This document shows, piece after piece, positions 47,852 to 55,468 of a stretch of DNA of 64,000 nt. The translations under genes were made by a program, and so were the position numbers. How positions within the stretch are numbered: position 1 is the first letter of the stretch; each line of letters begins with the position of its first letter. Below the pieces are notes generated by a model. It searched no databases, was not told the DNA's origin, and saw nothing but the letters and a program-made list of their open reading frames with translations. Origin of the DNA: Candidatus Daviesbacteria bacterium (GTDB lineage: Bacteria; Patescibacteriota; Microgenomatia; Daviesbacterales; UBA10151); contig JACOXI010000003.1 in assembly GCA_016176335.1 (NCBI GenBank), positions 194,477-258,476 on the forward strand, in the 5' to 3' direction.

Positions 47852-48331
47852 ATGCCAACTATAAATCAACTGGTCAGAAAAAGCAGAAAAAAGATTGTCA
47901 AAAAAGTTAAGGCAACTGCTCTCCGTCGAAGCTTTAATGGTAAAGACAGACGATATACTCAAAATTTTAACCCGCAAAAGCGGGGGGTGGTGACGCTGGT
48001 CAAAACCATGACTCCTAAAAAACCCAATTCAGCCTTGCGAAAAGTGGCCAGAGTGAGACTTTCGAACCGAACAGAAGTCACGGCATATATACAAGGAGAA
48101 GGGCACTCTTTGGCAGAACACGGAATTGTGCTGGTTCGAGGCGGAAGGGTAAAGGATTTACCTGGTGTAAAATACCATTTAATTCGCGGTAAACTTGATT
48201 TGGCAGGGGTACAGGGCAGAAAACAGGCAAGATCAAAGTATGGAGCAAAGGTTGGGGGAGCAGTTGCTACCCCAAGACCTGTTGGTCTGTCAGGCGGGGC
48301 GCCAGCACCTGCTGCACCGGAGGGAATATAA
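47852..48331 (+). CDS. rpsL: 30S ribosomal protein S12 (with about 25-aa Gly/Ala/Pro C-terminal extension)
   Basis: PTINQLVRK...[15 protein letters not shown]...[10 protein letters not shown]12 signature. Confidence 0.95.
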
Positions 48332-49160: not shown

Positions 49161-49382
49161 ATGGAGAAAAAGTTGAGGAAAGAAAAATTGAAGATGTGGA
49201 GAGAAAACCTCCAAAAATTAGAGGAGCAACTTGCTGCTGTGCAGCTTAAAAAAGGTGCTGCTGCGCAAGAGGGAGATCTGTCCGAAAATGCAGCCTACAT
49301 TATGGCAATTGAGGATGCCGAGACCTTGCGGGTACAAATTGAACAGGTGAAAAAAATAATTCAAGAATTGGAGGAAGGGTAA
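49161..49382 (+). CDS. GreA/GreB N-terminal coiled-coil domain-only protein (73 aa)
   Basis: LQKLEEQLAAV...GDLSENAAYIMAIEDAETLRVQIEQVKKII matches the Gre N-terminal coiled-coil (GDLxENAEY signature); no C-terminal FKBP-like domain encoded. Confidence 0.55.
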   Translation: MEKKLRKEKLKMWRENLQKLEEQLAAVQLKKGAAAQEGDLSENAAYIMAIEDAETLRVQIEQVKKIIQELEEG

Positions 49383-49453: not shown

Positions 49454-51616
49454 ATGCCAGTTCAAAAGACCAAACGGGATTTTCCGTTAGATCGCATACG
49501 CAATATAGGCATTATTGCCCATATTGATGCAGGGAAAACCACTACAACCGAGCGAATCCTCTTTTATACAGGCAGATCATACAAAATCGGAAATATTGAT
49601 GAAGGCACAACAGTGACTGACTGGATGGAGCAGGAAAGGGAGAGAGGAATTACTATTGTTTCTGCTGCTGTCACCACTTTTTGGACAGTTAAATCTGGTC
49701 TTTTTGAAGGAACTGAAACAAGAATTAATTTAATTGATACTCCCGGACACGTTGATTTTACGGCAGAAGTTGAAAGATCTTTGCGAGTATTGGATGGAGC
49801 AGTAATTGTTTTGGATAGCTCTTCCGGTGTGCAATCTCAAACCGAGACTGTTTGGAGGCAGGCCAATAAATACAGTGTGCCCCTTATTGCCTTTGCCAAC
49901 AAAATGGATGTGGTGGGTGCGGATTTTGCCGCTACTATTCAATCTGCCAGAGACAGGTTAGGTGCAAATGCTGTTGCTTACAATTTACCCATGGGAAAAG
50001 AGAATGATTTTAAAGGAGTAGTAGATCTTTTAACTGAAAAAGCAATAATTTGGGAAGGTGATCCCTCGACTCCGCTCGGGACAAGTGATACCGGTGCCAA
50101 ATTTACCGAAGTAGCAATACCTGCTGATATGGTGGATCAAGTTAAAGAGGCCCGTGAGAAGTTGGTGGAAGAGATTTCAGGGACAGATGATGTGTTAATG
50201 GAAAAATACTTGGCTGCAGAGGAAATCAGCATCGATGAACTCAAAAAGGCTTTGAGAAAAGCAGTTATTGATAATAAAATTGTGCCTGTTTTGGCAGGAT
50301 CATCTTTGCGCAACAAAGGCGTTCAACCTATGCTTGATTCAGTGGTAGAGTATCTGCCATCCCCACAAGATATTGGGCAAGTGTCGGGCCAAAACCCTCA
50401 AACAGGTGAGATGGTTATACGTAAAGCTGATCCCCTCGCTCCCTTATCTGCTTTGGCTTTTAAGATTCAGGTTGATCCGCACGTTGGAAAACTTACTTAT
50501 ATTAGGGTTTACTCTGGAACTTTAAAAAGTGGTTCTTATGTTTACAACTCCACTAAGCAAATTAAGGAAAGAGTCGGCAGACTACTCTTGATGCATGCCA
50601 ATGACCGGGAAGAGATTGAGGAAGCTTATGCAGGGGAAATTGTGGCTGCAGTAGGACTTAAGGATACTATCACCGGAGATACACTTTGTGATGAGATTGC
50701 TCCTATTATTTTAGAATCCATCTCATTTCCTGATCCGGTTATTTCCTTGGCCATTGAGCCGAAAACAAAATCCGATCAGGAAAAATTAGGCTATGCTTTA
50801 CAAAGACTGGCAGAGGAAGATCCAACCTTCAGAATAAAGAGCGATCCTGAAACAGCCCAGACTATTATTGCCGGAATGGGGGAATTACAGCTGGAGATTT
50901 TAGTGGAGCGAATGAGGAGGGAGTTTAAAGTGGATGCCAATGTTGGCCAGCCTCAGGTTGCCTATAAAGAAACCATTACTAAAATGGCAGAGGGAGAAGG
51001 TAAGTATATCAGGCAAACTGGTGGTCGGGGTCAATATGGTCACTGTCTTTTAAGAATTGAGCCTTTGCCTCGTGGACAAGGAAGAGAATTTGTTTCCGAA
51101 ATTACTGGCGGAGCAATACCACGGGAGTTTATTTCTCCCATTGAAAAAGGTGTTATTGAGAAAGAAGATACCGGAATTTTGGCAGGATACCCGTTAACAG
51201 ATATTAAGGTGGCAGTATACGATGGATCTTTTCATGATGTTGATTCATCAGAGGTGGCATTTAAAATTGCCGCTTCTTTAGGTTTGTCTGAAGCTGCCAA
51301 AAAAGCAGATATGATTTTGCTCGAACCTATCATGAAGGTTGAGGTGACAACCCCGGATGAGTTTATGGGGGATATTATCGGTGATCTATCTTCCAAAAGA
51401 GCCCAAATTTTGGGATCGGAAAAGCGGGGAAATTATACCATCATTAATGCTTTGGTACCCTTGGCAGAGATGCACGGATACGCAACAGCTCTTCGCAGTA
51501 TGTCCCAAGGTCGAGCCGGCTACTATATGGAGGCTGATCACTACGAACCGGTACCAGCCCAAATCACTGCCAAAATAGTTGAATCCTCTGGATTTACAGG
51601 CCGTGTTGAGCATTAG
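49454..51616 (+). CDS. fusA: translation elongation factor G
   Basis: [21 protein letters not shown] motifs; domains I-V of EF-G; 720 aa. Confidence 0.97.
50060..50083. repeat. fusA copy of the 24-nt DPSTxLGT-coding repeat (see 13267-13290)
   Basis: 23/24 identical to the grpE copy. Confidence 0.7.
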
Positions 51617-51681
51617 AATTATTACGGGGAGTAAAATATTTGCTGATTTTTTGGCGGATATCTGGGAATCAAATATCTGTT

Positions 51682-51710
51682 TTGACAAAGCGTACGGAAA
51701 AGCGTACACT
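51682..51710 (+). promoter_or_regulatory. yefM promoter with candidate antitoxin operator: TTGACA-17-TACACT overlapping direct repeat AGCGTAC-N5-AGCGTAC (GTAC cores 12 bp apart)
   Basis: CGTACG (51691-51696) and CGTACA (51703-51708) centres are 12 bp apart, inside the spacer and -10 of the promoter; ATG 9 nt after the -10 (near-leaderless). Confidence 0.5.
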
Positions 51711-51718
51711 GCTTTTAT

Positions 51719-52042
51719 ATGACCACAGTTTCTGTAACTCAAGCCCGTGCCAATTTATACGATCTTATTGATAAGGTTTCTACGTCTGGTAAACCAGTTG
51801 GAATTACCAATAAAGGTCAAACAAAAGCTATTTTAATTTCTCCGGAAGAGTTAAGATCTTGGGAGGTAACCATGGAAGTTATGAATGATAAAGAGTTGAT
51901 GGAGCAAATCAGAGAAAGTAAGAAAGATATTAAAGCTGGGAGGATTTACTCACTTGATGAAGTAGAAAAGGAGTTAAGATCAGTAAGGGATGTATCAGGT
52001 AAACCTATCAAATCAGGCAAGAAAAAGTCTAAAAAAGCTTGA
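51719..52042 (+). CDS. yefM: type II antitoxin, Phd/YefM family
   Basis: MTTVSVTQARANLYDLIDKV...KPVGITNKGQTKAILISPEELRSWEVTME closely resembles YefM/Phd; followed by a toxin ORF. Confidence 0.8.
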   Translation: MTTVSVTQARANLYDLIDKVSTSGKPVGITNKGQTKAILISPEELRSWEVTMEVMNDKELMEQIRESKKDIKAGRIYSLDEVEKELRSVRDVSGKPIKSGKKKSKKA

Positions 52043-52241
52043 TTATAAATTCCAAGATAAAGTATTGAAATCCCTGAGACTACTTGAGGTTGATCCATTT
52101 CTGGGTGAAAAAATGGGTGGACAATTCAAAGGATCTTTCCGAATTAAGATTCCGCCTTTGAGAATAATTTATACTCCGGATTTTAGTCGGAAGATAATTT
52201 TAGTTGAGGCTATCGGCCACAAAGGAGATATCTACAAATAA
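51990..52241 (+). CDS. type II toxin, RelE/ParE superfamily (YoeB/Txe-like)
   Basis: MYQVNLSNQARKSLKKLDYKFQDKVLKSL...FRIKIPPLRIIYTPDFSRKIILVEAIGHKGDIY matches RelE/ParE fold signature; overlaps the antitoxin 3' end by 53 nt in another frame. Confidence 0.75.
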   Translation: MYQVNLSNQARKSLKKLDYKFQDKVLKSLRLLEVDPFLGEKMGGQFKGSFRIKIPPLRIIYTPDFSRKIILVEAIGHKGDIYK

Positions 52242-52325
52242 ATATTTTCTGTTGCCAGGATCCAGATGGCAACATCTTCGGCCTCTTGAAATCCAGTGAT
52301 TTTTATTAGAAAATAGATTTATCCT

Positions 52326-53483
52326 TTAATTTGAAGGCATTTTTTTACTTTTTTCTATAATAGCCGCAACACGAACTATAAAATCTTGGACATCAAGGAA
52401 GAAATTAGGATATGCTCTTTTTAAAGAATTTATATCACCTGCAGATACAAGAACAGGTTCTATTTTCTCACCATTAGCTACCCTAGCTTCAGCCTCAGTA
52501 TAGTCCTCGGAGGCTTTCTTAATGTTGTCCTTTGCGTAAGATGTTATTCTAACCTTTTTTTCTAAAGAATTTAAGATAATTAAATGGTAATAAGAACCCT
52601 TTCCTTTTTTATCTGCAATGATTTTCAAAGCAAATTTATAGCTCTCCATAGCATTTAATGCTCTAATATCTTCAGCAATATGAGCAACAGCATCAAAAGT
52701 TTCTTTTTTGTCCATTTTATTATATTTTGAGATTCTAGGCGTACCTTCAATATAAGCAAATGCTGAAGATGTAATAGCAAAAAAGTCGCGCCACTTTTTT
52801 TCTCCCTCTCCAGATTTAAGTGCCTGTCCGAGATAAGTTCCCATTGTTTCAACAGCGGTAGCCCATGCGTGTTGTAGCTTTGTCCTAATTTGTAGTTCTA
52901 ATAAGAGTCCATTATATTCTGGTTTAATTTTATTTTTATACCTATAGACTAAATGTACGCTACGATATCCATCCTCTTTTGGATTCTGAATATAATCATC
53001 CGTTCGAACCAATCTATGCTGAAACTTTTTATCCATAAGATATATCGATTCGAGTTGGGTAACATCTTTGATAGATTTAACAACTGCTCTTAAACCACCT
53101 ATGTCCTGCATTCTAGCAAGTTTCATACCTCTGAATCTTCTCAATTTATCAATTATTGTGGACATACGTTTTAAACGCTGAGCTACAATTGCATTTGATT
53201 TCAATCTCCTCAATCTGGTTCTTAATGTAGCTTGAAAAGTATTCATTGGGTAACCATGACAAGCGCGCCAATTACTTAGAACATCGAGAGCATGATTAAA
53301 TTGTTCTTGGTCATTAGATTTACGACTGATTAAGATATCGCCTGCTCTATCTACTGCGGAATTTGAATAATCGGGTTGTGGAAATACCATAGCGGTTATT
53401 ATACAAATATCCCAGAAATAATCAAAAGACACCTTGGCTACGAAAGATTTTAAAACGTTTTTACCTCTTGCATAATCAGGCAA
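52326..53483 (-). CDS. RelA/SpoT-domain nucleotidyltransferase (small alarmone synthetase fold; toxSAS/CapRel-like architecture with 150-aa C-terminal extension)
   Basis: Synthetase motifs DIGGLRAVV, DGYRSVHLVY, ELQIRTKLQHAWA present. No synthetase-partner hydrolase domain. About 150 aa of unknown C-terminal domain. Start may be the internal MVFPQP at 53388-53390. Confidence 0.8.
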   Translation of the reverse strand: MPDYARGKNVLKSFVAKVSFDYFWDICIITAMVFPQPDYSNSAVDRAGDILISRKSNDQEQFNHALDVLSNWRACHGYPMNTFQATLRTRLRRLKSNAIVAQRLKRMSTIIDKLRRFRGMKLARMQDIGGLRAVVKSIKDVTQLESIYLMDKKFQHRLVRTDDYIQNPKEDGYRSVHLVYRYKNKIKPEYNGLLLELQIRTKLQHAWATAVETMGTYLGQALKSGEGEKKWRDFFAITSSAFAYIEGTPRISKYNKMDKKETFDAVAHIAEDIRALNAMESYKFALKIIADKKGKGSYYHLIILNSLEKKVRITSYAKDNIKKASEDYTEAEARVANGEKIEPVLVSAGDINSLKRAYPNFFLDVQDFIVRVAAIIEKSKKMPSN

Positions 53484-53592
53484 ATTATTGTATATTTATA
53501 TCTGTTACCAGCTTAAGGGGCTGGTATTTAATTGTCATTTGTCATATTGAGTCTGGACAAGATGAGATGGATAATGATAAAATAACAAAATT

Positions 53593-54777
53593 ATGGCTGA
53601 ACAGAAAAAGTTTGACAGAAGTAAACCCCACGTAAATATTGGTACCATGGGTCATGTTGACCATGGTAAAACCACTCTTACTGCAGCTATTACCAAAGTT
53701 TTAGCTGGCAAAGGTCTGGCTGAAGCTCGCTCTGTTGACCAAATTGACAATGCTCCTGAAGAAAAAGCCCGCGGTATCACCATCAATATCTCCCACCAGG
53801 AATACGAAACCGAAAAAAGACATTATGCTCATATAGACATGCCTGGTCACGCAGACTATATTAAGAACATGATTACCGGCGCCGCACAAACAGATGGCGC
53901 CATTTTAGTTGTTTCCGCGCCTGACGGCCCAATGCCGCAAACCAGAGAACATTTGCTTTTGGCAAGACAAGTAGGAGTTCCAGCAATTGTAGTATTTTTG
54001 AACAAAGTTGATATGGTTGATGATGCGGAACTGCTGGATTTGGTGGAAGAAGAAGTCCGGGATCTTTTGAAAAAATATGAATATGATCCGCAGTCACCTA
54101 TTATTCGCGGTTCTGCTAAAAAAGCTTTGGAAGGTGATGCGGAGGCTGTGAAGGCTGTTGAAGAACTTATGGCCAAGGTGGATGAATGGATTCCAACACC
54201 GGTCAGAGATGTGGAGAAACCATTTTTGATGGCTGTTGAGGATGTTTTCTCCATCAAAGGCAGAGGAACTGTGGTAACCGGAAGAATTGAAAGAGGCAAG
54301 GTTAAAGTTAATGAGGAAATTGAAATTGTGGGGATTAGACCTACCAAAAAGAGTGTGGTGACGGGAATTGAGATGTTTCACAAAATGTTGGATGAAGGAC
54401 AAGCCGGAGATAATGCCGGCATACTGCTTCGAGGTATTGAGAAAGATGATGTGGAAAGAGGTCAGGTTTTGGCCAAACCCTCCTCAATCACTCCTCATGC
54501 CGAATTTGAAGCAGAAGTTTATATTTTATCTAAGGAAGAGGGCGGAAGGCACACGCCTTTCTTCAAAGGTTACAGACCACAATTTTATATCAGGACCACA
54601 GATGTAACAGGTGAGGTACAACTGCCGGAAGGTGTGGAGATGGCCATGCCGGGAGACACGGTTAAAGTTACCGGTAAATTAATTACACCGGTTGCTATGG
54701 AAGATGGTTTAAGGTTTGCTGTCCGCGAAGGTGGTAAAACTGTTGGAGCTGGGGTAATTACGAAAATTATTGCTTAA
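53593..54777 (+). CDS. tuf: translation elongation factor Tu
   Basis: 394 aa; [22 protein letters not shown]; full EF-Tu conservation. Confidence 0.98.
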
Positions 54778-55192: not shown

Positions 55193-55468
55193 TCAGATAC
55201 CATCTAAAAGATTCTTAAATGCTGGGTTAATGGTTTTTATAAGTGCCATTTTCCTTTTTCTTGTCCAACCCTTTATTTTCTTCTCTGCGTTTATGGCGTC
55301 CATAACTTGGTCAAATTCTTGATAATAAACTAACTTATTTATATTGTATTTACTTGTAAAGTGATATTTCTTTATTCTATGTTCATGTATCCGACGCTCT
55401 AAATTGTTAGTTACTCCCACATAAAGAGTATTGGATTTATTTGTTAGGATATAAACATAATAAGACAT
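55193..55468 (-). CDS. GIY-YIG nuclease family protein (YhbQ/UPF0213-like, 91 aa)
   Basis: YYVYILTNKSNTLYVGVTNNLERRIHEH = GIY-YIG core with conserved Arg/Glu; reverse strand inside the S10 operon. Confidence 0.8.
   Translation of the reverse strand: MSYYVYILTNKSNTLYVGVTNNLERRIHEHRIKKYHFTSKYNINKLVYYQEFDQVMDAINAEKKIKGWTRKRKMALIKTINPAFKNLLDGI

Follow-up and report, generated by a model that had tools for sequence, protein, structure and literature searches.

A predicted single-chain CapRel-family toxin-antitoxin gene between fusA and tuf of a Candidatus Daviesbacteria bacterium

Is a RelA/SpoT-type synthetase that carries a long C-terminal extension and is encoded between fusA and tuf a housekeeping enzyme, or is it one of the toxic small alarmone synthetases (toxSAS), held in check by an antitoxin fused to it? 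The question is raised by a minus-strand gene in a stretch of 64,000 nucleotides (positions 194,477 to 258,476 of contig JACOXI010000003.1, assembly GCA_016176335.1; hereafter the window) from a Candidatus Daviesbacteria bacterium, a member of the Candidate Phyla Radiation (CPR, or Patescibacteria), where it lies between fusA (49454-51616, +) and tuf (53593-54777, +), within the str/S10 ribosomal-protein cluster and antisense to it. The original prediction, made from the letters of the window, proposed a fused toxSAS and, as an alternative, the sole (p)ppGpp synthetase of the cell with a novel regulatory domain. The first proposal is supported by full-length sequence similarity to the characterised CapRelSJ46, by a profile shared with it, by the fold of the whole chain and of its C-terminal region alone, and by the catalytic and autoinhibition residues. 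Judged from sequence and model, it is very likely that the gene encodes a fused CapRel-family toxSAS, i.e., a toxin and its antitoxin in a single polypeptide.

Family membership and architecture

The open reading frame (ORF) listing of the window confirms a minus-strand ORF at 52326..53483, which opens with TTG and comprises 385 amino acids (aa). The synthetase motifs that had been reported as intact, DIGGLRAVV, GYRSVHLVY and ELQIRTKLQHAW, are all three present in it, and Pfam places a RelA_SpoT domain (PF04607) at residues 102-212 of this ORF (E 4e-20). In a phmmer search against the PDB sequences, the chains 7ztb_A and 9erv_A are found at E 1e-37, with residues 39-368 of 385 aligned to residues 15-362 of the chain; RelQ/RelP-type enzymes come next at ~1e-12 and are confined to the catalytic core. 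Entry 7ZTB is described in the PDB as 'Salmonella tRNA pyrophosphokinase CapRel', that is, CapRelSJ46 of Zhang et al. 2022 (PMC9712102), and the phmmer alignment gives an identity to it of 34% over 323 aligned positions and of 27% in the C-terminal part. The C-terminal domain, which had been held not to be recognisable from sequence, does find a relative in this way, as the alignment with CapRelSJ46 (7ztb/9erv) runs through residue 368 of 385. Among phage genomes, a tblastn search recovered gene J46_0058 of phage SJ46 with 93% query coverage (29% identity and E 3e-44 in BLASTP); CapRel-type proteins are the best full-length phage matches, and a PhRel-like match is weaker and partial.

In the PADLOC library, the ORF has a single match, to PDC-S33 (model PDLC04999, PADLOC-DB 2.0.0), with E 2e-126 and 420 bits, covering positions 1-343 of the 349 in the profile and residues 32-378 of the 385. 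CapRelSJ46 matches the same profile end to end too (E 7e-87), an unfused mycobacteriophage toxSAS (WST1) matches it in its central part only, and no separate CapRel model in this version of the library matched either the window protein or CapRelSJ46. As both of these proteins match it end to end, PDC-S33 effectively stands for the fused-CapRel family, and genes annotated as PDC-S33 in genomes can effectively be taken as CapRel. PDC-S33 is an untested phage defence candidate, the PDC systems having been delimited by their position inside known defence loci, and this genomic context links the fused-CapRel family to defence on separate evidence.

The start of the gene is very probably the ATG at 53390 (M32 of the ORF), which gives a product of 354 aa and a gene at 52326-53390 on the minus strand, and not the TTG at 53483 that had been assumed. 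We rejected the 385-aa reading because the PDC-S33 match starts at residue 32, because gene calls on two independent Logan contigs yield exactly 354 aa, because an N-terminus of the form M[AV]FPxPxYS is common to all relatives, and because the longer ORFs called in relatives carry extensions unrelated to the 31 residues of the window's. Residue numbers from here on are those of the 354-aa protein. The gene is monocistronic: the ORF listing contains no adjoining same-strand ORF of at least 40 aa, upstream or downstream, and the absence of a separate partner or antitoxin gene on its strand, already remarked upon in the original prediction, thus holds on both sides.

An AlphaFold2 model of the full-length protein, built on 46 homologs, has a predicted local distance difference test score (pLDDT) of 89.3 and a predicted template modelling score (pTM) of 0.83. 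When this model was compared with the PDB by Foldseek, CapRel chains were its only full-length matches (E 6e-20 to 3e-19, TM 0.65-0.70, 354-359 columns), and RelP and RelQ aligned only over about 150-190 columns of the N-terminal catalytic part (query TM-score, TMq, 0.32-0.41). Past the synthetase core, DSSP assigns to the model three helices, followed by strands at 268-274 and 279-285, a helix at 287-305, a strand at 310-316, and helices at 320-326 and 328-350; the C-terminal region (aa 196-354) has no cysteines. The pseudo-zinc-finger domain (pseudo-ZFD) of CapRel was described as a three-stranded antiparallel sheet with a connecting helix, accompanied by anchors and a C-terminal extension (PMC9712102), and the topology of the model agrees with this.

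As a hinge complicates the superposition of the full-length chains, we also modelled aa 196-354 separately (pLDDT 85.9) and searched this model against 350,542 PDB chains. Only three chains matched significantly, all of them CapRel (E 2e-6 to 1.4e-5, TMq 0.59-0.69, root-mean-square deviation (rmsd) 3.8-5.2 Å), among them 9erv_A (E 2e-6) and 7ztb_A (E 3.4e-6, TMq 0.69, rmsd 3.8 Å), and the next match follows at E 0.28, so that structure prediction places the C-terminal region with CapRel and with nothing else. The antitoxins ATcapRel and ATphRel are homologous to this region of CapRel (PMC9712102, PMC7229694). A search with the C-terminal domain alone returned 1114 proteins; many of them are 83-190 aa long, and several are evidently pieces of fused genes. 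The small ORF that follows the mycobacteriophage toxSAS WST1 downstream showed no similarity to the clade profile (hhalign probability 0.8%).

The residues on which catalysis and autoinhibition depend in CapRelSJ46 were transferred to the window protein through an HMMER alignment, and their conservation was read from an alignment of 46 clade sequences. In CapRelSJ46, R79 and R116 coordinate the adenine, and the G-loop substitution Y155A abolishes defence (PMC9712102); their counterparts R72, R101 and Y142 are invariant in the 46 homologs, as are D96 and the E165/Q167/R169 motif, which the catalytic domain also carries. Substitutions at A77, R116, V338, L339, A341, A351, Y352 and Y355 make CapRelSJ46 constitutively toxic (PMC9712102), and seven of these eight unlocking residues are identical or conservatively replaced in the window protein. 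A77, V338, L339, A351 and Y352 recur as A70, V313, L314, A326 and Y327, all invariant in the clade, and A341 is replaced by S316 (S in 45 of the sequences, A in one). The eighth, Y355, is F330 and thus keeps its aromatic character; at this position the clade is divided equally between F and Y (23/46 each), and with Y327, P328 and N329 invariant the motif of the clade reads YPN[YF].

In the model, YPNF lies where the penultimate helix gives way to the last one (at 327), in a block of lower confidence (pLDDT 62 for 321-330), a position consistent with the hinge that, according to the CapRel paper (PMC9712102), turns into a 3-10 helix and thereby plugs the ATP site. Conservation in the 46-sequence alignment is among the lowest in the pseudo-ZFD helix (aa 281-300) and at the extreme C-terminus, and the variability of these segments is consistent with what would be expected of a sensor surface, though not proof of it.

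Some observations weigh against the assignment to CapRel. The identity to the sole characterised relatives is just 29-34%, and the second aromatic residue of the motif is F and not Y, an exchange that is probably neutral. The model differs from the open CapRel crystal form by a full-length rmsd of 9 Å, which is consistent with a hinge difference or a closed model and is no proof of the closed state. Finally, no recognisable prophage or multi-system defence island surrounds the gene in the window, where it is accompanied by one toxin-antitoxin (TA) pair only. The protein shows each defining feature of a fused CapRel testable here, the conservative Y-to-F exchange in the motif being the sole deviation. 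The window protein is, in sum, an ordinary member of the known CapRel family, whose mechanism has already been worked out.

Proposed mechanism and acceptor substrate

By analogy with the characterised CapRel proteins, the full sequence of events from an autoinhibited enzyme through its release by a phage protein and the pyrophosphorylation of tRNAs to abortive infection appears probable for the window protein as well. In the resting state, the pseudo-ZFD would fold back onto the toxSYNTH domain, and YPNF, as an element of the YXXY type, would sit as a plug between R72 and R101, in the ATP-donor pocket. In the course of infection, a protein made by the phage would then bind the variable surface of the pseudo-ZFD and keep the enzyme open, upon which the toxSYNTH domain would move pyrophosphate from ATP to the 3' CCA of uncharged tRNAs, and this modification of the tRNA 3' ends would halt translation and abort the infection. 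CapRelSJ46 pyrophosphorylates tRNAs once activated, and toxicity, its neutralisation, activation by a phage protein and the resulting abortive-infection defence were shown for CapRelSJ46, CapRelEbc and CapRelKp (PMC9712102).

A fused toxSAS of the same architecture could conceivably make (pp)pApp or (p)ppGpp instead, acting by ATP depletion or alarmone poisoning; nucleotide-making families of toxSAS do exist, FaRel and Tas1 among them, and an identity of only ~30% to CapRelSJ46 leaves room for such a difference. We consider this unlikely, as the tRNA pyrophosphokinase CapRelSJ46 stands far closer to the window protein than any other characterised homologue does and as Tas1 is absent among both the sequence and the fold matches. 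Moreover, a later structural study reported that those toxSAS that target tRNAs (FaRel2, fused and split CapRel, PhRel and PhRel2) are held in check at the ATP-donor site, by pZFD/YXXY elements, whereas the (pp)pApp makers FaRel and Tas1 are neutralised by Tis1-like domains that block the acceptor site. Since the window protein has an element of the pZFD/YXXY type, tRNA is its more likely acceptor.

It also seems quite unlikely that the gene has no role in phage defence at all and is either a module of selfish addiction or stabilisation, kept in the fusA-tuf island like the neighbouring Phd/ParE pair by the cost of its loss, or a remnant in decay that may be silent. A fused toxin and antitoxin cannot act by classical differential antitoxin decay. 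The functional residues are all intact and invariant across the clade, a pattern that argues for purifying selection, and an identical sequence was recovered in three independent read sets. The link to defence is drawn from two independent lines, the CapRel experiments and the embedding of PDC-S33 genes in defence loci. What such an explanation has in its favour is the setting of the gene, which shares a small low-GC insertion with a classical type II TA pair, has no prophage or other defence system nearby in the window, and is preceded by a promoter found at the level of consensus only.

Mobility of the gene and its genomic setting

The family to which the window protein belongs is large, with more than 5200 matches at E<=1e-5 and a typical length of 345-375 aa, and relatives at 51-75% identity are spread over several phyla and differing genomic contexts. 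An identical fusA-phd-parE-capRel arrangement is present on contigs of two other read sets, which represent the same strain as the window because their DNA is 100% identical to it; the next relatives, at 66-67% identity, have quite different neighbourhoods, and one of them adjoins a resolvase and a helix-turn-helix gene. Homologs from Nitrospirota and Syntrophobacterales are ~54% identical to the window protein, which nearly equals the 59-61% identity between the ultra-conserved elongation factor EF-G of the window and those of Nitrospirota/Deltaproteobacteria metagenome-assembled genomes (MAGs); such a degree of similarity across phyla is hard to square with vertical descent and points to horizontal spread of capRel.

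In line with this, no capRel homolog was found at the fusA-tuf locus of the nearest genome identified with an EF-G probe, another Candidatus Daviesbacteria MAG (L008, JACPZA010000036.1; 78%), nor at any of 80 EF-G-related loci. Among the viral contigs of IMG/VR, at least 257 stretches carry genes for relatives at 36-47% identity, and on one annotated viral contig the relative directly follows tail sheath, tape-measure and tail genes, which is a typical prophage moron slot. The capRel-like gene has a GC content of 0.343, and the genes of the insertion as a group have 34-36%, compared with 43-44% for fusA and tuf; we regard this as a weak sign of foreign origin, as highly expressed genes are often GC-richer. 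The capRel-like gene is a mobile accessory gene and not a housekeeping (p)ppGpp synthetase.

The housekeeping explanation, according to which the protein would be a small alarmone synthetase, possibly the sole source of (p)ppGpp, with its C-terminal domain as a regulatory or oligomerisation module, can draw on the intact synthetase motifs, on the detectable kinship of the catalytic core with RelQ/RelP/YjbM (E ~1e-12), on the lack of any other RelA/SpoT homolog (RSH) in the window (tblastn, E up to 10), which covers part of the genome only, and on the reduced genomes of CPR bacteria, but is very unlikely, given that the C-terminal region matches the CapRel antitoxin region alone in the PDB, that the gene is missing from the nearest locus and all the EF-G-related ones, that its close relatives lie in unrelated contexts and other phyla and the more distant ones on prophages, that its GC content falls below that of its neighbours, and that it scores far below the NCBIfam cut-offs for YjbM (GTPPhKinYjbM; 60 bits against 320), for the long RSH (TIGR00691; 48.9 bits against 499, matching by the synthetase core alone) and likewise for RelA and SpoT. 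The literature that we searched contained no paper on CapRel together with Patescibacteria, on PDC-S33 or on (p)ppGpp enzymes of CPR bacteria. The alternative in the original prediction, in which a novel regulatory domain belongs to the only (p)ppGpp synthetase of the cell, is disfavoured.

Two observations were made in passing on contigs that carry relatives of capRel. On that of the 67% homolog P0004 (L003:1-231), Pfam reveals a GyrA/topoisomerase IV subunit A interrupted by a LAGLIDADG intein, and GreA genes lie near capRel relatives in L003, L004 and L005, which could be a coincidence.

Within the window, the capRel-like gene and a Phd/ParE pair together make up an island of 2 kb and low GC content that lies between fusA and tuf (Table 1). 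The pair (51719-52241), which was missing from the original prediction, adjoins the capRel-like gene on the opposite strand, such that the latter is flanked by a divergent tuf and a convergent parE. We considered Phd/ParE as a cognate antitoxin of the toxSAS and rejected it, as it is a complete canonical pair and as such a pair also follows fusA in L008, without a capRel there. The inverted repeat between the convergent parE and capRel stops, as read from the sequence, is possibly a bidirectional terminator; the terminator scan did not report it.

Table 1. Coordinates of the capRel-like gene, its parts and the adjoining features in the window.
Feature	Position	Strand	Basis
Phd/YefM-family antitoxin gene, 107 aa	51719..52042	+	PF02604 E 6e-16; NCBIfam phd_fam; GC 0.358
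ParE/RelE-family toxin gene, 83 aa, partner of Phd	51990..52241	+	PF05016 E 3e-9; GC 0.345
7-bp inverted repeat GTTGCCA...TGGCAAC, 9-nt loop, between convergent parE/capRel stops	52251..52273	.	Sequence read
capRel-like gene, 354 codons and stop, predicted single-chain toxSAS toxin-antitoxin	52326..53390	-	ORF; PDC-S33; phmmer; BLASTP; two Logan gene calls
C-terminal antitoxin/sensor region (predicted), aa 196-354: anchor helices, pseudo-zinc-finger, C-terminal helical extension	52329..52805	-	AlphaFold2 model; Foldseek
YPNF, aa 327-330, putative counterpart of the CapRel YXXY	52401..52412	-	Alignment to Y352-P-N-Y355 of CapRelSJ46
Pseudo-ZFD core (predicted), aa 268-316, strand-strand-helix-strand, no cysteines	52443..52589	-	DSSP; topology as in PMC9712102
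N-terminal helices and toxSYNTH (RelA_SpoT) catalytic domain, aa 1-195	52806..53390	-	PF04607; residue mapping; Foldseek matches to RelP/RelQ
Spurious 31-codon N-terminal extension; probably noncoding 5' flank and promoter	53391..53483	-	Profile starts at M32; extensions of relatives unrelated
Promoter-like site (TTGATT-16-TATAAT) whose end is 8 nt upstream of the ATG	53398..53425	-	Consensus scan, 10/12 matches

The promoter-like site of the capRel-like gene falls within the supposed 31-codon extension; promoter-like sites in this region are not enriched relative to shuffled sequences, and the site is therefore weak evidence. On reading the sequence between its TATAAT and the ATG, we saw no obvious Shine-Dalgarno motif, and the mRNA may be leaderless. 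For tuf (53554-53595) as for the capRel-like gene (53388-53425), a -10-like hexamer ends 8-9 nt before the ATG with no visible Shine-Dalgarno motif, and leaderless or near-leaderless mRNAs may be in use in this organism.

In L008 (7244-11849), fusA is followed by a histidine kinase with PAS, HisKA and HATPase domains, a 793-aa DUF6259 protein and a Phd/ParE pair, whose Phd and ParE are 57% and 38% identical, respectively, to those of the window. That island closes with a 52-nt degenerate copy (43/52 nt) of the 3' end of fusA, possibly an att-like scar left by integration into this end of the gene. In the window, no copy of the fusA 3' end was found within the island and no integrase was found for it, and a comparison of the flanks of the insert for direct or inverted repeats gave short chance-level matches only.

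To place the locus in a wider frame, we surveyed the fusA-tuf gap in the window (51617-53592) and downstream of fusA in loci L014-L083. Its median length is 546 bp in genomes labelled as CPR/Patescibacteria, with values of up to 3.4 kb (n=20), versus 76 bp in other phyla (n=14; Mann-Whitney p 9e-6). The CPR gaps hold unrelated cargo, including kinases, a methyltransferase, a Bro-N protein, a NUDIX protein and a secreted peptidase, and the appearance of the junction is that of a variable slot for accessory genes within the str operon. Several Patescibacteria have small acidic ORFs directly upstream of tuf (L024:8776-9180, L025:8923-9291, L017:3701-4285), which give sub-threshold matches to the same part of the PhdYeFM_antitox profile (E 1e-4 to 0.02); there may thus be a recurrent orphan Phd-like gene at the CPR fusA-tuf junction.

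Taken jointly, these findings would allow a more far-reaching interpretation, which as a whole we hold to be doubtful. The 3' end of CPR fusA, or the fusA-tuf junction, would be a lineage-wide integration hotspot for TA and defence cargo, inside a str operon that is rigid otherwise, at which CapRel was captured in antisense orientation, with read-through from fusA tying its expression inversely to growth; no toxSAS immune sensor would then have been described before from a lineage of ultra-small episymbionts, and this one would presumably be attuned to the phages of CPR bacteria.

Elsewhere in the window, a stand-alone ORF of 91 aa for a GIY-YIG nuclease (55193-55468, -; Pfam E 1e-15, GC 0.293) lies between rpsJ and rplC and looks like another small foreign insertion in the ribosomal-protein cluster. 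A 73-aa ORF between rpsG and fusA (49161-49382, +) comprises the N-terminal coiled-coil of GreA/GreB only (E 1.7e-6) and has a 54% homolog at the same place in L008. The ribosomal proteins S12 (47852-48331, 159 aa), L3 (55743-56528, 261 aa), L4 (56428-57231, 267 aa) and L23 (57228-57659, 143 aa) are, we presume, longer than typical bacterial versions, owing to low-complexity extensions that are charged or rich in Ala and Pro. ARAGORN detected neither tRNA nor tmRNA genes in the whole 64 kb, and none of the Rfam families, not even the ribosomal-protein leader elements customary in operons of this kind, reached its gathering score there.

Comparison with known systems

The window protein extends the fused CapRel family to a CPR bacterium of the Daviesbacteria, and for our understanding of the protein itself little changes with this. 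What it offers lies around it: the untested PADLOC candidate PDC-S33 can in practice be read as the CapRel family, a sensor-effector of known mechanism in a small CPR genome provides a handle for finding the triggers that CPR phages carry, and the alternation of F and Y at the second aromatic position of the YXXY motif amounts to an experiment of nature on the requirements of the autoinhibitory plug. The variable fusA-tuf junction of CPR genomes is possibly worth a dedicated survey.

Among known systems, the housekeeping enzymes RelQ and RelP (YjbM/YwaC) share the fold and the motifs of the catalytic core with the window protein, but at ~210-230 aa they lack the pseudo-ZFD that is part of its 354 aa. 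FaRel2/ATfaRel2 of Coprobacillus sp. D7 is a tRNA-pyrophosphorylating toxSAS with a pZFD-type YXXY element at the ATP-donor site, as is predicted for the window protein; it differs in being bipartite, in forming a heterotetramer and in the topology of its antitoxin, and FaRel2 is absent among the sequence and fold matches of the window protein. The bicistronic systems CapRel/ATcapRel and PhRel/ATphRel (Mycobacterium and mycobacteriophage Phrann) have a homologous toxSYNTH toxin, and the match between the unfused mycobacteriophage toxSAS and the window protein covers the N-terminal 55% of the latter, but in these systems toxin and antitoxin are encoded by separate genes, whereas they are fused here. 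To PDC-S33 of PADLOC the window protein is near-consensus, as its score of 420 bits indicates.

The closest resemblance is to CapRelSJ46 (J46_0058 of Salmonella phage SJ46; 7ZTB, 9ERV), CapRelEbc and CapRelKp, which are fused anti-phage toxSAS and, like the window protein, are encoded by one ORF of ~350-370 aa. With CapRelSJ46 the window protein has in common the N-terminal helices and the toxSYNTH domain, the anchors, a cysteine-less pseudo-ZFD of strand-strand-helix-strand topology and a C-terminal helical extension, and in both the autoinhibition motif, putative in the window protein, sits where the last two helices meet. The two differ in the motif itself, which is YPNF in place of YPNY, in the S that takes the place of A341, and in the loops, which are shorter in the window protein, with alignment gaps of 8, 7 and 4 residues, including within and around the pseudo-ZFD. 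They also differ in their hosts, as CapRelSJ46 comes from an enterobacterial prophage, while the gene described here is chromosomal, in a CPR bacterium, between fusA and tuf.

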